Notes: generated from the sequence alone by a model not told the origin. 33,251 nucleotides of DNA from Alphaproteobacteria bacterium UBA5343 (GCA_002410125.1 DHQH01000064.1:1-33251), one strand, 5' to 3'. Shown: positions 7,141 to 33,251, numbered from the stretch's first letter. Numbers and translations: made by a program.

Positions 7141-7848
7141 CTATGCAGCAAATAAAGAATAGGCTTGTGTAGCATTAGCATATAAAGCAGATTCGTCTTC
7201 AATAACTCCTCCTGCTAATTTCTCGCTATAACTAACTACACCATCTTCATTGGTGTCAAGCTCATCATATTCTTCCGAAGATGATTCACCTCCACCACCA
7301 GTAGGTCCAACCCCTCCACCCTTTCCGCCAGGAGGAGGTCCAGCCTGAGCCATTTGCTCTTCTGATACCAAACCTGTACCATCTTCATCTAAAGATGCAA
7401 AAAGTTGAGCAGCTTCTTCCTTACTAACACCTTCTGGTCTAGCAGCAATAAATTCTGCTTCACTTAAATAACCATCACCATCAGTATCAGCACTACTAAA
7501 CATATCACTTCCTTTAGTAGAAGTACTATTCTCTAATTCTTCTATCATTTCTATAATAGAAGCCAACATATCTTCAGCTATTGCTTCAACAGAGCTACCA
7601 ACTACAGCTGGTCGCCCATTAGGAGGAGGTGCACCTTTAGCCATCTGCTCTGCAGATAGACTACCTGTTCCCTCACTATCTAATTCTGCAAACTTTTCAC
7701 TAGCTTGTGATTCGCTTACACCATCAGGCCTATTTAAAACAAATTCTTCCTTTGATACACTACCGTTTCCATCAGTATCAATTCGGCTAAACATATCTTG
7801 TCGTGCATATTGCATTTGACCAGCTGATATTAAAGAAACACTATCCAT
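7141..7848 (-). CDS. EF-hand calcium-binding repeat protein
   Basis: Five DxDGxG-type loops (DTDGNGSVSKEE, DSEGTGSLSAEQ, DTDGDGYLSEAE, DEDGTGLVSEEQ, DTNEDGVVSYSE). ATG at 7848 is preceded by AAGGAGAAG. The track start at 7920 is rejected. Confidence 0.8.
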   Translation of the reverse strand: MDSVSLISAGQMQYARQDMFSRIDTDGNGSVSKEEFVLNRPDGVSESQASEKFAELDSEGTGSLSAEQMAKGAPPPNGRPAVVGSSVEAIAEDMLASIIEMIEELENSTSTKGSDMFSSADTDGDGYLSEAEFIAARPEGVSKEEAAQLFASLDEDGTGLVSEEQMAQAGPPPGGKGGGVGPTGGGGESSSEEYDELDTNEDGVVSYSEKLAGGVIEDESALYANATQAYSLFAA

Positions 7849-8784: not shown

Positions 8785-8909
8785 AATCTGAAGGATTTTG
8801 TGCCAGTAGAAGTAAACTTTATTTTTCAATGTGGTTTCGCGTATAAGTAATACGTGAACGCCTCATTTAAAAATCAATTTACGATTAATGGTGCAAAAGA
8901 CAAAGATTA
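8785..8909. repeat. MITE-like palindromic element, copy A (125 bp)
   Basis: Ends AATCTGAAGGATTTTGTGCCAGTAGAAG ... ACGATTAATGGTGCAAAAGACAAAGATTA form imperfect terminal inverted repeats. The nusB stop codon (8907-8909) lies inside the right arm. Confidence 0.8.
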
Positions 8910-12739: not shown

Positions 12740-12766
12740 GCAAAAGACGAGGATCCAGTTCTATTG
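12740..12766. repeat. degenerate fragment of the palindromic element family
   Basis: gcaaaagacgagga matches the right-arm core of copy F. It is directly followed by ccagttctattg, which matches the stop-proximal arm of copy D. Confidence 0.45.
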
Positions 12767-13486: not shown

Positions 13487-13562
13487 TCCGGCATAGCTCA
13501 GTTGGTAGAGCAAGCGGCTGTTAACCGCTTTGTCGCAAGTTCGAGTCTTGCTGCCGGAGCCA
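13487..13562 (+). tRNA. tRNA-Asn (GUU)
   Basis: Acceptor TCCGGCA/TGCCGGA, D-stem GCTC/GAGC, anticodon stem AGCGG/CCGCT with loop CUGUUAA, T-stem GCAAG/CTTGC and encoded CCA. Confidence 0.93.
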
Positions 13563-13862
13563 ATTTGAACCCTTTGATAGATTTACGAATTTATCAAAGG
13601 GTTTTCTTATTGAAAACTCTAGATTTTTTCCATCTATTACTAAGTTCGAGAAAACAAAATTAATAATTTTCCTTTTTACATCAATTTCCGAACTTTTAAA
13701 TAACTCAAAAGCCCTAGAAGATATATCCAGTAAGTAGTTAACCGTTATTGAGAACTCATCATTAGCCTTACCTACTTTATCCAATCTTACTTTTATATTG
13801 TATTGTTCTGTTTTTAATTCATTTGCTTTTTTGTTATATACATCTGTTGTAATACTCATCAA
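13521..13862 (-). pseudogene. C-terminal remnant of a large serine recombinase reading antisense into tRNA-Asn
   Basis: The 113-aa ORF resembles only the extreme C-terminal region of large serine recombinases (...SSRAFELFKSSEIDVKRKIINFVFSNLVIDGKNLEFSIRKPF...). No catalytic N-terminal domain is present, and only 91 bp separate it from the next gene. The tail ...WLRQQDSNLRQSG is the antisense translation of the tRNA. Confidence 0.6.
13570..13608 (+). terminator. rho-independent terminator after tRNA-Asn
   Basis: ccctttgata (13570-13579) / tatcaaaggg (13592-13601) form a 10-bp stem, followed by ttttctt. Confidence 0.75.
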
Positions 13863-14282: not shown

Positions 14283-15947
14283 GTGTTAAAAGAAATATTC
14301 AATAAACCTAATAATCGTTATAATACTTTTGAAGTTTTACCTTTTAATACTAACAGAGAGATTTTACACAATACTATTTCCTGTTTTTCAACTTATGTAA
14401 AGTATGAAGATGAATCTGAACTAATTGATAATATATCCAACAATACCTATTCTATACAAAATACAATAAATAAAAAAAACATAAGCAAAATTCACAATAA
14501 AATTAATAAAAATATAAATAAAAAGTATAAATTGTATAGATTAAATAGATTATCTAATAACACAGATGAATATAAAGATTTCAAGAAATTTGAAAAATTA
14601 TTACAAGAAAGTAACATCGAAAATATTGATGATAATCTATTATTACTTGTTTCTAGCAAATATAAAAAAATTGAGACTAATAACTTTATTAGAAAACAAA
14701 TTATTAGATATATAAATAAAAATACAAATCTATCAAAAATAAATTCTGATAGAAACAAACACAAAAACATAGCTTTAGTTACTGGAGCACCAGCATCTGG
14801 AAAATCTAGTGTTGTCGATATGTATAAAAGTTTATCTTTTAATAATATGAATTTTAATCAGGTTATTAAGATAAATCCTGACTACTACAAAGAGCTATTG
14901 CTAGATACTAAAGGTTTTAATGAAAGTGATATAATAAACTTTGGTTCATATACACACGAGGAATCTGCTATCATTAACGATATGGTTATAAGTGAATGGA
15001 TAAAAAAAGAAAATAAAAACAAACATTCCCATTTAATGATAGACACAAGCAATGCATCCCCTTGGTATATAGATATTATACAAAACACGAACAAACACGG
15101 GAAACTTGATATATTATCTGTTACTGTTAACACCCAAAATGCTTTAGAAAGGTCATACACAAGAGGAAAAGAAAAGAGTAGATTCGTTCCCACTAAATTA
15201 TTGCTTGCGAGACATAAAGAGCAACTAGGTATATTTATAAATAATACTATACATTATAACGAGTTACCTATCAGAATTTTTTCTAATGATGTTGATTTTG
15301 GAGAAGTTATTAAAGATACTCTAAAAAAGAGAGCTAATGCAGACACAATAGAAATCTACGATATGAAATCAGCTGTAGAGTTTTGGAATAAACAGTATAT
15401 TAATATAGATGCTGTAAATGTTGAAGAAATACAAACAAAAGAAGATGAATATAATGAGGCATTAATAGGTTTTGCCAAAAGAACAGGTAAAGAAGTTAAG
15501 TTATTTGATGTTGAGGGTAAGCAAGTTATAGCTAATGTTACAGAAAATGGTTTTGAAATATTAAATAGATTTGAATTCAATAAGGTAATTGATAAAGCAG
15601 GATATCAAGAAGAAAAGAAAATACCTGAGTTAGGTAGCTTAATTAATAAACATAAAGGAACTTTCAGTAATAAAGAACCTGAAGCAATTAAGAAACCTAT
15701 AAAAGATGAAGAATTAGAAGAAATAAATAATAATTTAGGTTCTACATTTGAAAGAAATAAAGGAATAGCAAAAATACTTAATAGTCTCATTAGGTCTAAA
15801 GATAAGTTATTAGGTAAAGAAAAGAATAACCGTGAAGAGAACAATCAAAAAGATAGTAACTTAACTAATGATATTAACGAAAAGAATAATAAAATATCTG
15901 ATATTATTAATAGCCTTAAAATTGCTAAAGAAAAAAATAATAATTAA
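14283..15947 (+). CDS. zeta-toxin/AAA-like P-loop kinase-domain protein with Asn/Lys-rich extensions
   Basis: Walker A ALVTGAPASGKSS and a Walker-B-like HLMIDTS. The first in-frame Met lies after the P-loop, so the start must be GTG 14283 or a non-canonical codon upstream. The frame is open back to 14169. Confidence 0.55.
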   Translation: MLKEIFNKPNNRYNTFEVLPFNTNREILHNTISCFSTYVKYEDESELIDNISNNTYSIQNTINKKNISKIHNKINKNINKKYKLYRLNRLSNNTDEYKDFKKFEKLLQESNIENIDDNLLLLVSSKYKKIETNNFIRKQIIRYINKNTNLSKINSDRNKHKNIALVTGAPASGKSSVVDMYKSLSFNNMNFNQVIKINPDYYKELLLDTKGFNESDIINFGSYTHEESAIINDMVISEWIKKENKNKHSHLMIDTSNASPWYIDIIQNTNKHGKLDILSVTVNTQNALERSYTRGKEKSRFVPTKLLLARHKEQLGIFINNTIHYNELPIRIFSNDVDFGEVIKDTLKKRANADTIEIYDMKSAVEFWNKQYINIDAVNVEEIQTKEDEYNEALIGFAKRTGKEVKLFDVEGKQVIANVTENGFEILNRFEFNKVIDKAGYQEEKKIPELGSLINKHKGTFSNKEPEAIKKPIKDEELEEINNNLGSTFERNKGIAKILNSLIRSKDKLLGKEKNNREENNQKDSNLTNDINEKNNKISDIINSLKIAKEKNNN

Positions 15948-16064
15948 AAACTAAACAATTCTGTTTGTAACTCCTTCAATTTGAGGAATTAATGGATAGA
16001 AAAACATAATATCATCATAAGATTTTGTTCGGAGTTCCTCCAATAAGGGGAGCCAATTAAAATG

Positions 16065-16092
16065 AAAAACCACTCCTTTAGGGGTGGTTTTT
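16065..16092. terminator. bidirectional rho-independent terminator
   Basis: aaaaa-ccactcc-ttta-ggggtgg-ttttt has A- and T-runs on both sides. It overlaps the last codons of the minus-strand 384-aa gene. Confidence 0.65.
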
Positions 16093-17937: not shown

Positions 17938-18936
17938 CTATTTCTTATCAATCTTAAATATTGCCTGAATAGATTCTAAAACCTTATCCAAATTTATCGG
18001 TGGTTTATATTCTTTCTTTAATTTAATAATTGATATAAACTGCTTAAGACTCAAATTATTCCAATCCCCAATCGCCTCAATAATCTTAGCCCCAACCACA
18101 AATGGTTGTTGAAACTTATGATAAGGATAAGTTCTCAGCACTGCAGTTGATGAAATCAAAGGAATAAGCAAATCCTTATCTATAAATATTTTGCGATTAG
18201 GCTTTGGCAACTCATTATAAAAATCAACAATATCATAAACGAAATTTTTAGGAAAAGCCAAATCCGATAAATTCGACCCAATAGAAATAAACTCAACATA
18301 AACACTAGACATTCTAGCCACACCAAAATCAATAAAACTAACCTTTTGTGTTTCTATATCGTAAAAGATATTTCTAGGTGCAATATCACCATGAATTGGC
18401 ACAATAACATCATCTTTTAAAAAGCTATCAGCCTTTTTCAAAAACTCTTTAAAACTTTTCCAAACTCCAATTTTTTTAATATCTTTCATTATCTTCTTAT
18501 TACCCATCAAAAAAGGTTTTATCCCCTTAGGATATTTCTTCCAAAAAGATGATTTAGACTGATGTAAATCATTTAAAAATAAAGCAATATTTTTAGCTAT
18601 ATCATATTTCTTCACCTTACTCATATTTTCCATCATATCTTTTGTAAGCTCTTTACCTATAGCACACTCTTCTATCGAATAGCCAATCTCTTCATTTATA
18701 CAAAGAATACGAGGAATTAACACATTGGGGTTTTTATTAATTTTATAAGCAAAATCACCTGCAATTTTAGCTCTTTTTTGTAGAATCAACCAAGAATGTT
18801 TAGTCTCTTCATTTATAGCTTTTTTAACTATATATTTCTTACCATCTTCATCATTATTATACATATAAGCATTAGAAAAAATCCCAGCTCCAATCTTTTC
18901 CAAATTATCTATTTCTTTACTGTTAAATTTTCTCAT
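17938..18936 (-). CDS. protein-kinase-like fold phosphotransferase (APH/ePK-like)
   Basis: Gly-rich loop KIGAGIFSNAY, Lys in YIVKKA, catalytic loop IHGDIAPRNIFY and metal-binding IDFGVA. Confidence 0.7.
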   Translation of the reverse strand: MRKFNSKEIDNLEKIGAGIFSNAYMYNNDEDGKKYIVKKAINEETKHSWLILQKRAKIAGDFAYKINKNPNVLIPRILCINEEIGYSIEECAIGKELTKDMMENMSKVKKYDIAKNIALFLNDLHQSKSSFWKKYPKGIKPFLMGNKKIMKDIKKIGVWKSFKEFLKKADSFLKDDVIVPIHGDIAPRNIFYDIETQKVSFIDFGVARMSSVYVEFISIGSNLSDLAFPKNFVYDIVDFYNELPKPNRKIFIDKDLLIPLISSTAVLRTYPYHKFQQPFVVGAKIIEAIGDWNNLSLKQFISIIKLKKEYKPPINLDKVLESIQAIFKIDKK

Positions 18937-18994: not shown

Positions 18995-19026
18995 CAAAAA
19001 AAGAGAGTGGTACTTTCACCACTCCC
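18995..19026 (-). terminator. rho-independent terminator of the hydG transcript
   Basis: The minus strand reads GAGTGGT-GAAAGT-ACCACTC followed by TCTTTTTTTG. It lies distal to palindromic element B. Confidence 0.7.
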
Positions 19027-19093
19027 TATTTATATTTTAAGAGATTACAGGAGAAAGATAGCAGTCTGTCGATTGCGACTAGTAGCCCCCCTA

Positions 19094-19218
19094 AATCTGA
19101 CAGATTTTGTACCAATAGAAGTAATTTAAGAAATTTTGCGATTGATTTTAGCCTTTACTAAATGACCTGAGCAAAATATTCGAAGAATCACAATTAGTGG
19201 TGCAAAAGATGAAGATTA
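19094..19218. repeat. MITE-like palindromic element, copy B (125 bp)
   Basis: AATCTGACAGATTTTGTACCAATAGAAG ... ACAATTAGTGGTGCAAAAGATGAAGATTA. The hydG stop codon (19216-19218) lies inside the right arm. The central ~55 bp are about 90% identical to copy D. Confidence 0.8.
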
Positions 19219-20679
19219 AAAATAGATGTCCCTCTCACCTTTATTAGAAATCCTTGAAAGAGCCTCTTTCACTTTTACTTTCATATCCCCCTCATCCATT
19301 TTTTCAAATTCTTTCCTGATAAGCTCCATACCAACTTTTTTAGTTTTCTCACTTGCATAATCATTTAGATATTCCGAAAAAGTACACATCGCATTTGGAG
19401 TACAACATTTTTTAATAAAGTTCGACTTAGCCAATCCCATAAAATGATCCCCAGTTCTGCCTAACCTATAACAACCAGTGCAAAATGACGGAATATAATC
19501 AAGTGTTGTAGCTAAATCACAAATCACCTCATCAAGAGGTCTTTCATCCCCAATTGAGAATTGCTGTTCTTGAGGTACATTAGCTTTCATATCAACATAT
19601 CCTCCTGGATAAGTCCTAGATGCTGCCGAAATTTGCGAGATTCCAAGTTCCAAAAGTTCTCTTCTAAATTCTGTATTTTCTCTAGTTGATAAAATCAACC
19701 CAGTATAAGGAACAGCCAATCTTAAAATTGCAATAATTTTTTTAAACTCATAATCACTCATTTGATATGGAGGTTGATATGACATTTCAGAACCAAGTGC
19801 TGGCTCAATCCTTGGGAAAGAAATTGTATGAGGTCCCACTCCAAATTTATCTTCTAATTCTTCCGCATGAGCAAGAAGTCCTAAAACTTCAAACTTATAA
19901 TCAAACAACCCAAACAAAGCTCCCGTTGCCACATCATCAAGCCCTGCTTCTTGTGCTCGATGCAATGCATATAATCTCCATTTGTAATTAGTTTTATTAC
20001 CACTTATATGCATCTTATTATAAGTCTCTGTATGATAAGTTTCTTGAAAACATTGATAAGTTCCAATATTAGCATTTTTAAGAGTTCTAAAACCTTCCAC
20101 ATTCAAAGGAGCACAATTTATATTAACCCTTCTAACCTCTCCTGACGGATTAGTTTTTGTTGCATAAACTTCATCAATAGTATGAGCCAACCATTCAGGA
20201 GAATAATCATACTCACCATAAACAACTAAAACTCTTTTATGTCCCATCCCTTCAATAACACTAACCTCTGCTTTAATTTCTTCATCGGTTAAAGTCTTTC
20301 TAACTAATTCTTTATTTGTTTTTGCAAAAGCACAATAAGCACACACATTTTTACAAACATTAGAGATATAAAGCGGAGCAAATAACACCATACGATTACC
20401 ATAAATTCTTTGCTTAACTTCTTTAGCTAGTGCAAAAATTTCTTCATCTAAAGCTTTATCTTTATTTTGTAATAACACAGCTGTTTCATATTGAGAAAGT
20501 CCCTTATTATCAATATCTCTAGCCTTATCTAAAATATCTTTTACTTCTTGTTTATCTGCTTTTTTTGCCTTCTCTAAAATATTAAAAATATTTTCTTCAT
20601 CAATAAAATTAGGCAACTCATCAGCTTTAGCAATTTCTTTTTTTAATTGCTTTGCATATTCTTTTGAAATCATTTTCAT
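19216..20679 (-). CDS. hydG: [FeFe]-hydrogenase maturase HydG (radical SAM tyrosine lyase)
   Basis: 487 aa. Radical-SAM CKNVCAYC (Cx3Cx2C), GHKRV, GPHTISFPR and a C-terminal SFCTGCYRLGRTGDHF...KKCC (CX2CX22C-type) cluster motif. Confidence 0.88.
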   Translation of the reverse strand: MKMISKEYAKQLKKEIAKADELPNFIDEENIFNILEKAKKADKQEVKDILDKARDIDNKGLSQYETAVLLQNKDKALDEEIFALAKEVKQRIYGNRMVLFAPLYISNVCKNVCAYCAFAKTNKELVRKTLTDEEIKAEVSVIEGMGHKRVLVVYGEYDYSPEWLAHTIDEVYATKTNPSGEVRRVNINCAPLNVEGFRTLKNANIGTYQCFQETYHTETYNKMHISGNKTNYKWRLYALHRAQEAGLDDVATGALFGLFDYKFEVLGLLAHAEELEDKFGVGPHTISFPRIEPALGSEMSYQPPYQMSDYEFKKIIAILRLAVPYTGLILSTRENTEFRRELLELGISQISAASRTYPGGYVDMKANVPQEQQFSIGDERPLDEVICDLATTLDYIPSFCTGCYRLGRTGDHFMGLAKSNFIKKCCTPNAMCTFSEYLNDYASEKTKKVGMELIRKEFEKMDEGDMKVKVKEALSRISNKGERDIYF

Positions 20680-20691
20680 TTGTTCTATCCC

Positions 20692-20931
20692 TTACACTAT
20701 AAGACTTTTAACTTTAATTCCTGACATCTGCCCTAACTTACCAGTTAGCTCACCTATATCATCTGTTGTTGACTCCACAACTACAGAAATAATACTAATG
20801 CCTCTTTCTTTGTAAGGAATACCAAGCCTACCGATAATCTTATCGCCAAACCCTGATAATAATTGATTTACATTGTGTGCTTGTTCTCTATCCATCACAA
20901 TAATCGTGATCGTACAGATTCTTTTTTCCAT
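20692..20931 (-). CDS. TM1266-family iron-only hydrogenase system regulator (small ACT/NikR-C-like)
   Basis: 79 aa. The pattern ICTITIIV.DRE....VN.LL..F...IIGRLGIPYKERGISIISVVV is as I recall for this family. It lies 12 nt upstream of hydG. Confidence 0.75.
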   Translation of the reverse strand: MEKRICTITIIVMDREQAHNVNQLLSGFGDKIIGRLGIPYKERGISIISVVVESTTDDIGELTGKLGQMSGIKVKSLIV

Positions 20932-21788: not shown

Positions 21789-22130
21789 ATGACACATTCA
21801 CAATTTCGAATTCGCACTTTCATTGGTTTCATGGTTATTGCTACTATCGCAGTAATATTTAGTAGAGAACCACAAAAATGTTCAACTACGCTACCTTTAG
21901 AAAAAGTTTCTAAAGAACCTGTTGAAAAAATAGGTTATGTAAAAGGCATCGTCGGTGATACAGCTCTTTACATCGCCTATGACAAACACCGATATGAACC
22001 TGTAGCTATAACATCACTAGCTAAATACAGGTTAAATAAAAAGGATAGTATATCCTTTAGAACGATGAAAAAATTAGCCTTTACCTTAACAGGTATTGAA
22101 GCTAGTAATATAAAAGAAATAAGCCCGTAA
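21789..22130 (+). CDS. hypothetical membrane-anchored protein
   Basis: 113-aa ORF with one N-terminal hydrophobic helix (FIGFMVIATIAVIF). A terminator overlaps its stop. Confidence 0.45.
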   Translation: MTHSQFRIRTFIGFMVIATIAVIFSREPQKCSTTLPLEKVSKEPVEKIGYVKGIVGDTALYIAYDKHRYEPVAITSLAKYRLNKKDSISFRTMKKLAFTLTGIEASNIKEISP

Positions 22131-22151
22131 CTTACGGGCTTTAACTTTTTT
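22121..22151 (+). terminator. rho-independent terminator
   Basis: AAGCCCG-TAACTTA-CGGGCTT followed by taactttttt. Confidence 0.75.
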
Positions 22152-22160
22152 AAATCATCA

Positions 22161-22195
22161 TTTTTTACGATTAATCGTGCAAAAAACGAGGATTA
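22161..22195. repeat. solo right-arm copy (C) of the palindromic element
   Basis: ttttttACGATTAATCGTGCAAAAAACGAGGATTA contains the 12-bp palindrome ACGATTAATCGT. The tyrA stop codon (22193-22195) is inside it. Confidence 0.65.
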
Positions 22196-23068
22196 AACAC
22201 GGTTTTGCTTAGCTTCAATCACCTCATCCCTAACCTTCTTAGTCCTGTTAAAGAGTTCTTCTAATTCCAGAGCATTACCCCACCGAATATTTTTCTGTAA
22301 TGCTATTAAATCTTCTGTAAATCTTTGCAAAAGTTCTAATATCATATCTTTATTGTTCATTGCTATATCTCGCCACATTATAGGGTCAGACCCTGCAAGT
22401 CTGGTCATATCTCGAAAGCCACCAGCCGAATATTTAATAATTTCTTTTTCTTCAAAACCTTCCAAATCATCCACTGTTCCAACTAAAGAATATGATATGA
22501 AATGAGGTAAATGAGAAACCGCCGCCATCACTTTATCATGATGTTCAGGTGTCATTTTAGATATTTTCATCCCTGCTGCCTTCCAAATTTTTGCAATTTT
22601 ATTTAAGTTAGTTTCATCCTTATTAATCGGAGTAAAAATAAACCATCTATTATTAAACATCTCAATAAATCCAGCTTCTGGTCCTGATTTTTCAGACCCT
22701 GCAATTGGATGCCCTGGCACAAATTCTATTCCCTTAGGTAATACTGACAATATATCTTCTATCACAGCTTGCTTTACGGAACCAACATCAGTAATCACCG
22801 CACCCTTTTTAAGAAATGGTGTAATTTCTTTTACAATATTTTTATAGGTACTAACAGGTGTCGCAAGCATTACTAAGTCAGCATCATTAACTACATCAGC
22901 TACATTTTCACTATAGCTATCAACTACTCCTAGTTCTTTTGCTTTTTTCATATAAAAATCATTAGTATCAAAACATGATAATTCTACACATTGCTTATTT
23001 TTTTTGATAACCCGGGCAATTGACGATCCAATCAACCCTATTCCTATAATTGATATTTTATTAAACAT
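22193..23068 (-). CDS. tyrA: prephenate/arogenate dehydrogenase
   Basis: N-terminal Rossmann ISIIGIGLIGSS and the catalytic GHPIAGSEKSG motif. Confidence 0.88.
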   Translation of the reverse strand: MFNKISIIGIGLIGSSIARVIKKNKQCVELSCFDTNDFYMKKAKELGVVDSYSENVADVVNDADLVMLATPVSTYKNIVKEITPFLKKGAVITDVGSVKQAVIEDILSVLPKGIEFVPGHPIAGSEKSGPEAGFIEMFNNRWFIFTPINKDETNLNKIAKIWKAAGMKISKMTPEHHDKVMAAVSHLPHFISYSLVGTVDDLEGFEEKEIIKYSAGGFRDMTRLAGSDPIMWRDIAMNNKDMILELLQRFTEDLIALQKNIRWGNALELEELFNRTKKVRDEVIEAKQNRV

Positions 23069-23213: not shown

Positions 23214-23319
23214 ATTAGGTGAGTTTTAGGCGATAAGAAATTTTGCGACTGATTTTAGCAATTACTAAATGACTGGAGCAAAATATTCGCAATCAACGAC
23301 AAAATCACCAATAGAACTA
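23214..23319. repeat. MITE-like palindromic element, copy D (~106 bp)
   Basis: Left arm TTAGGTGAGTTTTAGGCGATAAGAAATTTTGCG. The reverse complement of the right arm is TAGTTCTATTGGTGATTTTGTCGTTGATTGCGAATATTTTGC. The motB stop TAG (23317-23319) is at the outer edge. Confidence 0.75.
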
Positions 23320-30722: not shown

Positions 30723-30750
30723 AAAAAAAACCTGCTCATTAAAAAACAGG
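30723..30750 (-). terminator. weak terminator-like hairpin with a T8 run downstream of rpsD
   Basis: The minus strand reads GCCTG-TTTTTTAATGAG-CAGG-TTTTTTTT. The stem is short. Confidence 0.3.
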
Positions 30751-30803
30751 CTTTCAATTTTATTTCTCTATTTTAATCTTCTTACTACCCCAAATAAGTT
30801 GGG

Positions 30804-30929
30804 TAGTCTAGTGAGTTTTACACGAATAGAAGTTAATTAAGAAAAGCCAAAACTTGAGCTTAGCAATTTACTAAGTTAGTTTTGGCTTATTCGAAAATTC
30901 ACGATTAGTCGTGTAAAAGACACAGACTA
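30804..30929. repeat. MITE-like palindromic element, copy E (126 bp, best-preserved hairpin)
   Basis: Outer arms TAGTCT/AGACTA. Middle arms TTTTACACGA (30816-30825) / TCGTGTAAAA (30909-30918). Inner arms AAGCCAAAACT (30844-30854) / AGTTTTGGCTT (30878-30888). The loop is centred at about 30866. The rpsD stop TAG is 30927-30929. Confidence 0.85.
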
Positions 30930-31717: not shown

Positions 31718-31779
31718 ATATTGAGTTTTCTTAAAAATTAATTTGCGATTAGTCGTGCAAAAGACGAGGACAGAGGCTA
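31718..31779. repeat. miniature copy (F) of the palindromic element abutting a start codon
   Basis: TATTGAGTTTTC...TTTGCGATTAGTCGTGCAAAAGACGAGGACAGAGGCTA contains the hairpin CACGA-CTAA-TCGTG equivalent. It ends 1 nt before the ATG at 31780. Confidence 0.6.
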
Positions 31780-33251
31780 ATGTCATACGACATAATGTTA
31801 CAAAAAGCAGTAGAATACTACGAGGGTGGAGATTTAGATCAATCTGAAGCCTTACTCAGAAAGATTCTTGAAACCGTGCCTAACAACCCAGAAATACTAA
31901 ATTTATTAGGACTAATCGCCCATCAAAAAGGCATATTTGAAGAAGCTCATAACTTATTTTATAGAGCAATTCAAAATAAAGATAATTTTGCACCATTTTA
32001 TTTTAATCTTGCCAATTCCCTGCAAGATTCTGGCAGATTAAATGAAGCTCTAACCTATTATAACAAGCTAATCCAAATTGATTCTAACATTCCTGAAACA
32101 TATCTAAACATTGGTAACATTCATCGCCAATTGGGAGATATTAAGGAAGCCCAAAAACAATATTGGAAAACCCTAGAAATTTCGCCTAATTTTATAATTG
32201 CCAAAACCAATCTCGCTCTTAGTTATTTAGATTTAGGTGATATTGAAACAGCAAAAACTAGATTAGAAAAAATCACCAGTGAACACCCTAATGAAGATGA
32301 CACCCTATTTCACTTGGCAACCCTTTATAGAAACGAAAACAATCTAAATAAAGCTTATGAGTTATATAATAAAGCCATATTTCTCAATCCTTCAGTTTTT
32401 TATTATTACAATAGCTTAGGCATTACTTTTGAATTAGAAAATAAGTTCAACAAAGCCAAAGAGAATTATAAAAAATCTTTTGAATTAAACCCAAACTTTA
32501 CAGATGCAATAATAAATCTTGCTAATATGTATGCTCTTGAAAAAAACTATATCACTGCCAAATCGTTATACCTAAAAGCAATTGATTTAGAACCGAACTC
32601 TTTTGATGCCCACTTAAATTTTGGTAACTTACTTCAAAATAATAATGAATTATCACTTGCTTTAGAAGAATATAGAAAAGCCATTATAATTCACCCAAAA
32701 TCAGCAATTGCCAATATCAATATCGCCCTCATAACTAGATTAAACAAAGAATATGAAGAAGCATTAGGGTTATTATTTAATGCCCTAAGCCTTGATAAAA
32801 ATATCCCATCAATCCCAATTATCATATCAGAAACTCTTTATTTATTTGCAGAAAAAAATAACAAAAATCAAGCCATCAAAATCGCCAAAAACTGGGTTCA
32901 TAATTATCCTGATTGCAAAATCGCAAGACACTCCCTTCTCTCCCTTGAGGGAAAAGCAATAGATATCGAAACAAAGCTTATATATAACAAAGCATTATTT
33001 GACAACTTCGCAGAAAATTATGAAGAAAAACTAATTGATATTGATTATAAAATCCCAACCGAGATAAAACATCTACTCAAAGCCATTAACTATAATAATG
33101 TCTTAGATCTAGGTGCAGGAACCGGCATTATTGGTAATATCATCAAAGAAAATAACAAGAACAGCAAAATCACCGCTATTGATATTTCTAAAAAAATGTT
33201 AAATATCGCAAATGAAAAAGCAATCTATCACGAACTCATCCAAGCCGATAT
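31780..33251 (+). CDS. TPR-repeat protein with C-terminal class I SAM-dependent methyltransferase domain (3-prime partial)
   Basis: Not in the ORF track because it runs off the window. My translation is MSYDIMLQKAVEYYEGGDLDQSEALLRKILE..., with many 34-aa TPR-like units, then VLDLGAGTGIIG (SAM motif I). GAGG lies 3 nt upstream of the ATG. Confidence 0.8.
   Translation, partial: MSYDIMLQKAVEYYEGGDLDQSEALLRKILETVPNNPEILNLLGLIAHQKGIFEEAHNLFYRAIQNKDNFAPFYFNLANSLQDSGRLNEALTYYNKLIQIDSNIPETYLNIGNIHRQLGDIKEAQKQYWKTLEISPNFIIAKTNLALSYLDLGDIETAKTRLEKITSEHPNEDDTLFHLATLYRNENNLNKAYELYNKAIFLNPSVFYYYNSLGITFELENKFNKAKENYKKSFELNPNFTDAIINLANMYALEKNYITAKSLYLKAIDLEPNSFDAHLNFGNLLQNNNELSLALEEYRKAIIIHPKSAIANINIALITRLNKEYEEALGLLFNALSLDKNIPSIPIIISETLYLFAEKNNKNQAIKIAKNWVHNYPDCKIARHSLLSLEGKAIDIETKLIYNKALFDNFAENYEEKLIDIDYKIPTEIKHLLKAINYNNVLDLGAGTGIIGNIIKENNKNSKITAIDISKKMLNIANEKAIYHELIQAD

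Follow-up and report, generated by a model that had tools for sequence, protein, structure and literature searches.

Integron attC sites, for example the Vibrio VCRs, are imperfect palindromes of 60-140 bp at the 3′ ends of ORFs, whose ends are conserved, whose palindromic centre varies and whose two strands fold unequally, and doublets of REP palindromes have been conceptualised as REPINs. The REP/BIME sequences and REPINs of Enterobacteria and Pseudomonas are, like the elements that we describe here, short extragenic palindromes found as singlets and inverted doublets; also as here, the doublets enclose a variable spacer and form one long hairpin, their locations include 3′ UTRs and the spaces between convergent genes, and different subfamilies coexist (PMC3733652). 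REPs carry a conserved GTAG or CGTC tag at one end, and their termini can supply the stop codon of a flanking ORF, which provides a precedent for the stop-codon phasing reported below (PMC3733652). Bacterial MITEs are commonly TA-ended and co-transcribed as hairpins (PMC2229807). Within this class, two accounts describe the Correia/NEMIS elements of Neisseria, RUP and ERIC as 100-160 bp long and non-coding, with terminal inverted repeats, TA ends and variants in core size, all of which are features of the elements here, and describe Correia-type elements as co-transcribed hairpins that RNase III can cut or bind and that also occur as truncated and nested copies (PMC2229807; PMC2649163). Finally, the Rickettsia palindromic elements (RPEs) share with our elements an alphaproteobacterial host, a palindromic structure, a length of about 100-150 bp and a fixed phase to host ORFs (PMC2229807, PMC3733652).

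The stretch of DNA analysed here (33,251 nucleotides, hereafter the window) is a contig from a beach-sand metagenome (ENA ERZ937827, run SRR1569871) with a G+C content of 31%, and of about 25% in its intergenic DNA. Its host is an uncultured, marine, AT-rich alphaproteobacterium: protein similarity places it among the alphaproteobacteria, GcrA is encoded in the window, and its rpsD is at most 70-73% identical to any named sequence, the nearest being from Rhodospirillales-like genera and MAGs. Everything concluded below is based on this one 33-kb contig and on eight short contigs of two close relatives. The window has a very strong strand bias (6284 C and 3990 G on the + strand; whole-window GC skew -0.22), which extends to intergenic DNA and, in the genes of either strand, to third codon positions. 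The minus strand carries 24 of the 36 protein genes and, judging from skew and gene orientation, is probably the leading strand. Several of the encoded proteins are unusual for a free-living alphaproteobacterium, specifically a 235-aa protein with several EF-hand calcium-binding domains (7141-7848, -), a 554-aa protein with a Zeta-toxin domain (14283-15947, +), an APH/kinase-like protein (17938-18936, -) and a TPR protein with a fused methyltransferase domain (31780-33249, +); these genes may indicate a host-associated lifestyle. The [FeFe]-hydrogenase maturase gene hydG (19216-20931, -) adjoins a TM1266-like small gene, and this pair in a beach-sand alphaproteobacterium of 31% G+C suggests anaerobic hydrogen metabolism. 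A called ORF of 112 aa (13521-13859, -) overlaps a tRNA-Asn gene (13487-13562) on the other strand and was probably called in error in the source annotation.

A family of palindromic elements recurs in the window at the coordinates given by the original prediction, which had been made from the sequence alone, and the sequences are as it described them (Table 1). The family is known from about eight pieces on this single contig. Four full copies (106-126 nt) and three partial ones lie within 33 kb, none contains an ORF of at least 60 aa, and in being small, non-coding and multicopy they match bacterial MITEs, whose length is below about 300 bp. A 34-nt right-arm motif, TTTACGATTAATGGTGCAAAAGACAAAGATTAAA, is present as five direct repeats at 8878, 19187, 22164, 30898 and 31742, all on the + strand. 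When we searched with a 19-nt consensus pattern, CGATTARTSGTGCAAAAGA, five matches with up to 3 mismatches were found, against 0.02 expected from shuffles, and the exact 14-mer GCAAAAGACGAGGA, common to the piece at 12740 and copy F, has three matches with up to one mismatch, against 0.03 expected. Full-length profile matches of the family reach E = 1e-30 or better. The 56-nt centres of B and D are 91% identical, A and F are 85-89% identical, and all family pieces together sum to 551 nt, or about 13% of the window's non-coding DNA. A profile search with models of both subfamilies found no further copies in the window. The lone arms C, F and 12740 are decay products.

Not every predicted piece fared equally well. 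The fragment reported at 12740-12766 shares its first 14 nucleotides (12740-12753) exactly with F. Copy F, listed as a partial copy of a family sitting at gene 3′ ends, is indeed a right-arm remnant, but it lies directly upstream of the ATG at 31780. The inverted fragment proposed at 19053-19080 is at chance level, with a best local alignment of p ~0.08, and a supposed subfamily-2 arm fragment downstream of D was dropped after it failed the pattern test. The low G+C content of the window and of its intergenic DNA, together with the chance-level fragment at 19053-19080, might suggest that the whole family is a chance similarity of AT-rich intergenic DNA. This explanation is refuted by the two pattern counts, the profile matches and the covariation described below, and it is so improbable that we set it aside.

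Table 1. Members of the repeat family and neighbouring terminator-like hairpins in the window. Energies are for RNA folds, in kcal/mol.
Feature	Position	Strand	Length (nt)	Description	Energy, + strand	Energy, gene-sense strand
Copy A	8785..8909	+	125	Subfamily 1, full hairpin; left arm 8785-8817, right arm 8878-8909; 8907-8909 (TTA) is the nusB stop codon (minus strand)	-39.3	-24.4
Copy B	19094..19218	+	125	Subfamily 1 arms, B/D-type centre; 19216-19218 is the hydG stop codon	-29.3	-24.1
Copy C	22161..22195	+		Lone right arm; core 22164-22197; 22193-22195 is the stop codon of the prephenate dehydrogenase (tyrA-like) gene		
Copy D	23214..23319	+	106	Subfamily 2 arms, weak hairpin; 23317-23319 (CTA) is the motB-family stop codon	-20.4	-17.9
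Copy E	30804..30929	+	126	Subfamily 1, stablest hairpin; 30927-30929 (CTA) is the rpsD stop codon	-46.5	-42.8
Copy F	31731..31779	+		Lone right arm; core 31742-31775; abuts the ATG (31780) of the + strand TPR/methyltransferase gene		
Right-arm remnant	12740..12753	+	14	Outer part of right arm; 34 nt downstream of the rpiB stop codon		
Far-arm remnant	30768..30785	+		Remnant of older subfamily-2 element downstream of E; CTATTTTAATCTTCTTAC in the window, CTATTTTAATCTTATTAT in relative L182		
Hairpin downstream of B	19002..19027	-		Intrinsic-terminator-like; terminator scan		
Hairpin downstream of C	22121..22141			Bidirectional, terminator-like; separates a 113-aa gene (+) from tyrA (-); follows C on the minus strand		
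Hairpin downstream of E	30726..30755	-		Intrinsic-terminator-like; terminator scan		

A full element consists of a left arm (consensus RTCT-N6-TTTTRYRCSA-RTAGAAGTWA), a variable palindromic centre and a right arm (consensus YACRATTART-SGYRYAAAA-GAYNN-AGAYTA), and two subfamilies occur in addition to the lone right arms; the ends read TARTCT in subfamily 1 and TARTTCT in subfamily 2. The predicted lengths of A, B and E proved exact, and all three are long imperfect hairpins that fold far better than shuffled controls, with z scores of -6.0 (A), -3.8 (B) and -7.8 (E) for the + strand using RNA parameters and -4.8, -3.0 and -8.1, respectively, using DNA parameters. Copy D, counted by the prediction as one more full copy, is real and lies at the motB stop codon, but it belongs to a different subfamily with different arms, and its hairpin is barely beyond shuffles (z ~ -2). 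The lone arms C and F do not fold on themselves beyond shuffles (z = -0.6 and +0.5).

The right arm had been described as the inverted counterpart of the left, and the two arms do pair. Each arm is about 33 nt long, and among the cells of the 26 arm pairs in A, B and E the paired fraction is 93.6%. Six pairs have changed on both sides; 1 of 500 shuffles matched these six double changes, and slid controls were 35-44% paired. In their pairing the arms resemble the terminal inverted repeats of a bacterial MITE, although left and right differ in ways that are conserved between copies and are not simple inverted repeats of one another. The paired arms form a 10-bp helix, TTTTGTGCCA with TGGTGCAAAA, and this helix is flanked by conserved non-canonical features: a G.A or A.G opposition, a tandem A.A/A.G mismatch and a G.U pair that does not vary among A, B and E. 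Flanking TA (or TAA/TTA) is found at both ends of B, E and the element of relative L182, and A has CA/TA; because TA is itself palindromic, it may merely extend the hairpin. Forcing a hairpin onto every gene's stop codon gave multibranch folds and was uninformative.

Only three tRNAs in the window pass the Rfam gathering score. At E <= 5 nothing in Rfam overlaps any full element, and one sub-threshold Trp_leader match (E 0.92) falls on solo arm C and its terminator. Inspection by eye found no IHF, CtrA, parS or CcrM (GANTC) motif in the elements. The window also holds other hairpins. One of about 108 nt (2706-2815; RNA z = -5.8 on the minus strand) lies 22 nt downstream of the stop codon of a merR-family gene and adjoins a 39-nt direct repeat of 95% identity (2602-2640 and 2683-2721); it occurs once in the window and is outside the stop-codon repeat family. 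The Zeta-toxin-domain gene and a 384-aa gene converge on an imperfect hairpin (15970-16052) and a strong bidirectional terminator (16055-16090). Sub-threshold Rfam matches to psRNA14, BSnc120 and Phe_leader all fall on this terminator region near 15970-16090 and are probably generic hairpin matches.

The neighbouring genes were confirmed as nusB, hydG, a prephenate dehydrogenase (tyrA-like) gene, a motB-family gene and rpsD, and the claim that every full copy and copy C start at their stop codons holds to the nucleotide: the ORF ends 8907, 19216, 22193, 23317 and 30927 coincide with the element ends 8909, 19218, 22195, 23319 and 30929, and each of the five gene-adjacent copies closes with the three nucleotides that serve the minus-strand gene as its stop codon. 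In the direction of the gene, these junctions are TAA-TCT or TAG-TCT, and TAG-TTCT in D. By our own arithmetic, if the five element ends were placed at random in their own spacers, all would coincide with stop codons with p ~1e-10. The RpsD and HydG proteins align to their family profiles through the last residue, so their stop codons are native. TyrA is about 15 residues shorter than its distant homologues, both in the window (22193-23068, -) and in the closest relative (locus L184), consistent with a new stop codon contributed by an old element insertion. The frame that follows the stop codon would give a similar peptide (S-x-S-F-A-P/R-L-I-V) in A, B, C and E; we rejected a translated element tail, as the fixed phase explains this similarity and the mix of synonymous and non-synonymous differences makes no case for translation.

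The exception to this positional rule is F, which ends at an ATG (31780), upstream of a + strand gene and not at a gene 3′ end. The GAGGA of this right-arm remnant (31757-31779) lies at the expected ribosome-binding site of the TPR gene; GAGGA is also found there in relative L188 (25-60; TTG start) and is reduced to AAGGA in L182 (1527-1560). Judging by its placement, the repeat sequence may have been exapted here as a translation signal, with GAGGA/AGAGG as the putative ribosome-binding site.

A terminator scan called none of the elements as an intrinsic (Rho-independent) terminator, the hallmark of which is a short GC-rich hairpin with a T run behind it, and called separate hairpins beyond B, C and E. 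As these terminators follow the elements on the gene strand, the elements would be part of the 3′ UTRs. Their place between stop codon and terminator, and a helix kept by compensatory changes, could suggest that they are cis-acting RNA modules selected by the host, in which a hairpin at the stop codon protects the 3′ end of the mRNA, directs its processing or slows ribosome release, and which spread by duplication or gene conversion and not by transposition. We regard this as rather unlikely; lone arms and fragments that do not fold persist in the window, and the fold of D is barely distinguishable from shuffles. Further evidence on this explanation comes from the relatives and from the two strands of the hairpin.

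The description of the family as previously unannotated agrees with the lack of any Rfam match and with searches of genome and metagenome collections, in which nothing rose above chance. Exact and degenerate right-arm patterns gave 26 scattered single matches, at chance level, in 185,579 species-representative genomes, and the family is absent from this set. It is likewise absent from JGI metagenome contigs, where none of 68 pattern matches had the flanking motif; these matches are apparently due to chance, with some recurring in identical contexts. Profiles of the arms had no matches in 80 rpsD loci of relatives. Two closer organisms could be compared. Organism 1 (Logan SRR22455134/5) is identical to the window at 84% for NusB, 79% for TyrA and 88% for rpsD DNA, and organism 2 (ENA ERZ23499948 / SRR13957626) at 93% for the rpsD protein and 90% for rpsD DNA.

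Four sites, those at rpsD, tyrA, motB and nusB, are visible in these close relatives. All are filled, each by an element that starts at the stop codon, and in each case the variant differs from that in the window. At the rpsD stop codon, the window has the subfamily-1 copy E and the leftover far arm of a subfamily-2 element (30768-30785), and L182 and L188 have a 114-118-nt subfamily-2 hairpin (TAATTCT...AGAATTA); the leftover arm, downstream of E, points to an older element at this stop codon that E has replaced. Copy D of the window belongs to the subfamily of the rpsD-linked elements in both relatives. At tyrA, the lone subfamily-1 arm C corresponds to a subfamily-2-like element in organism 1 (L184), and at motB the subfamily-2 copy D corresponds to a canonical subfamily-1 left arm in organism 1 (L184) that is 90% identical to that of A. 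At nusB, where the window has the subfamily-1 copy A, organism 1 (L176) has an unrelated palindrome that begins at the stop codon and is followed by a conserved lone left arm. Paralogous copies in the window (the B/D centres; A and F) are closer to each other than are the occupants of one orthologous site in different organisms. Turnover of these occupants outpaces change in the neighbouring intergenic DNA, where the window and organism 2 are about 80% identical.

The comparison of orthologous sites proposed with the original prediction, as a search for empty sites, gave a divided answer. In relatives at about 70% protein identity, a plain stop codon is followed by a terminator or the next gene: L186 (rpsD 72%) has a plain terminator 17 nt after rpsD and no element, and L187 (TyrA 67%) has a tyrA gene with a full-length C-terminal tail and no element. 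In the close relatives, however, there is no clean empty site among the four examined. An apparent empty site at F in L182 was withdrawn, as the intermediate remnant GTACAAAAGGCGAGGATTTTAAA in L188 leads to the reading of the L182 sequence as a degenerate copy. These distributions suggest that the family arose in, or invaded, one narrow lineage. The short-read unitigs of the relatives (L177, L183, L184 and L185) stop inside elements, with L184 and L185 ending at the same base; since unitigs end inside repeats, this suggests that the elements are multicopy in the relatives' genomes too. In L182, the far half of the rpsD-linked element and the terminator are present in two to three tandem copies (2413-2510, 2553-2650, 2770-2800) on either side of a run of Ns that marks a scaffold gap. 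Between rpsD and the next gene, L182 has no visible tRNA-Lys gene; the window has one.

For an RNA module selected by the host, these comparisons cut both ways. The anchoring on the stop codon is exact in the relatives as well as in the window, even where the sequence is different, as in the L176 palindrome, and the same four sites are occupied across the close relatives. On the other hand, rpsD and tyrA have no such element in relatives at about 70% identity, and the exchange of occupants between close relatives argues against a structure adapted to a specific gene.

The two strands of the hairpin are not equivalent. The + strand, which is antisense to all five host genes, gives the more stable fold in each of the four full copies, whether RNA or DNA parameters are used (RNA energies in Table 1), a count that does not represent four independent observations, as the copies share ancestry. 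Along the + strand, G.T oppositions outnumber A.C oppositions by 8 to 2, and purine-purine mismatches outnumber pyrimidine-pyrimidine mismatches by 30 to 11. The elements are G-rich on this strand (skew +0.175), in contrast to other intergenic DNA, which is C-rich there (skew -0.255). The L176 palindrome has the opposite preference, its sense strand folding better. This asymmetry is not predicted by a purely selfish passenger of 3′ UTRs. It weakens the case for a host-adapted mRNA module, in that every full copy folds less well as the mRNA-sense strand, and it keeps alive a different explanation in which the + strand is the functional form. That strand could give rise to a family of small or antisense RNAs, or it could fold as single-stranded DNA into a hairpin that a transposase or recombinase reads strand-specifically, in the manner of integron attC sites and REP/RAYT systems.

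Several features agree with a functional + strand: in addition to its greater stability, the G.U pair is invariant in A, B and E, the purine-rich internal loops are conserved between copies, the G-richness of the elements opposes the local skew, and all confirmed pieces have a single orientation. A promoter scan, however, scored below the shuffle expectation, with no promoter-like signal standing out. Single-strand transposons of the IS200/IS605 and REP/RAYT types use the lagging-strand template, whereas skew and gene orientation suggest that the better-folding strand here is not that template. The common descent of the copies and the sense-strand preference of the L176 palindrome likewise count against this explanation. 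We rejected integron attC sites, which the elements resemble by anatomy only: on inspection the ends misfit the RYYYAAC...GTTRRRY consensus, the neighbours are core genes in conserved operons (nrdR-nusB, motA-motB, rpsD) and not cassettes, and there is no integrase among the called genes of the window. Overall, we consider a functional + strand very doubtful.

Comparison with the described families brings out several differences. REPs are GC-rich and the elements here AT-rich; the latter are without a GTAG or CGTC end tag, and GTAG occurs at the outer end of one arm only (E, left). The REP unit is an imperfect palindrome of 20-40 nt that folds alone, whereas the lone arms here do not self-fold and the two arms of an element are not repeats of a single unit. 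In addition, no RAYT gene was seen in these 33 kb. The elements therefore fall outside the REPs proper on the tag and on the self-folding of the unit. Every gene-adjacent copy here is phased on a stop codon, which is not known to be the rule for Correia elements; the sequences of the two are unrelated, no pattern match was found in any species-representative genome, and we identified no IHF site or end-borne promoter here. RPEs typically lie in frame inside ORFs and are translated, whereas the elements here begin at the stop codon, outside the protein, with only TyrA looking shortened. There is also no sequence match to RPEs, and by rpsD the host is nearest to Rhodospirillales-like lineages and not to Rickettsia. 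Thus, the sequence family is unannotated, but the class to which it belongs, that of small non-autonomous bacterial repeats of the MITE/REP-like kind, is already known.

We favour the reading, which we consider probable, that the family is a lineage-specific, non-autonomous and non-coding repeat of MITE/REPIN-like type, probably transcribed as a 3′-UTR hairpin, that turns over by transposition or gene conversion. This reading as a MITE or REP doublet draws on the lineage restriction, the subfamilies, the conserved ends with variable centres, the lone arms, the greater similarity of paralogues than of orthologues and the nested remnant. Mobility is suggested by the turnover of occupants at individual sites, there being no filled/empty pairs in the close relatives. 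The designation MITE-like, as it was first proposed, holds in the loose sense: size, copy number and inverted arms fit, as do the variable centres, truncated copies, lineage restriction and fast turnover. An unambiguous target-site duplication was not found, nor was a clean empty site in the close relatives, and the 33-kb window contains no transposase, RAYT gene or insertion sequence with matching ends.

The repeat reading also offers a simple route to the stop-codon phasing. Insertion would take place at the TA of a stop codon, and because the element, in gene-strand orientation, begins with a purine, TAA or TAG would be rebuilt and the protein left unchanged. The element would then occupy the first part of the 3′ UTR, with the intrinsic terminator of the gene lying beyond it, and would be co-transcribed and fold into a hairpin of about 60 positions per side with the stop codon in its base. 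Copies could be replaced or homogenised through further insertion or through gene conversion between copies. Effects on the host, such as protection of the 3′ end, RNase processing or interference with terminating ribosomes, would be secondary.

The same observations could conceivably, though we doubt it, reflect a system specific for stop codons: a mobile hairpin, integrated or converted by machinery directed at the stop codon or at the junction between stop codon and element, with the conserved asymmetric loops (tandem purine mismatches and the G.U pair that A, B and E share) marking a strand-specific RNA or single-stranded DNA ligand (a recombinase site, or a family of antisense RNAs at gene 3′ ends) and the same stop codons being re-occupied by variants.

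With this family, the recorded bacterial MITE/REP-like elements gain an unannotated member whose host is an uncultured marine alphaproteobacterium. Metagenome assemblies break at such repeats, and the contigs of the relatives end inside elements; they can mislead the annotation of gene ends and small RNAs, and they could serve as lineage markers. The features most worth following are the strict stop-codon phasing and the conserved asymmetry between left and right. If the phasing holds genome-wide, the family would be a clean natural system for understanding how a small repeat targets, or is retained at, translation stops, and also for the fate of mRNAs under a hairpin that terminating ribosomes must melt.
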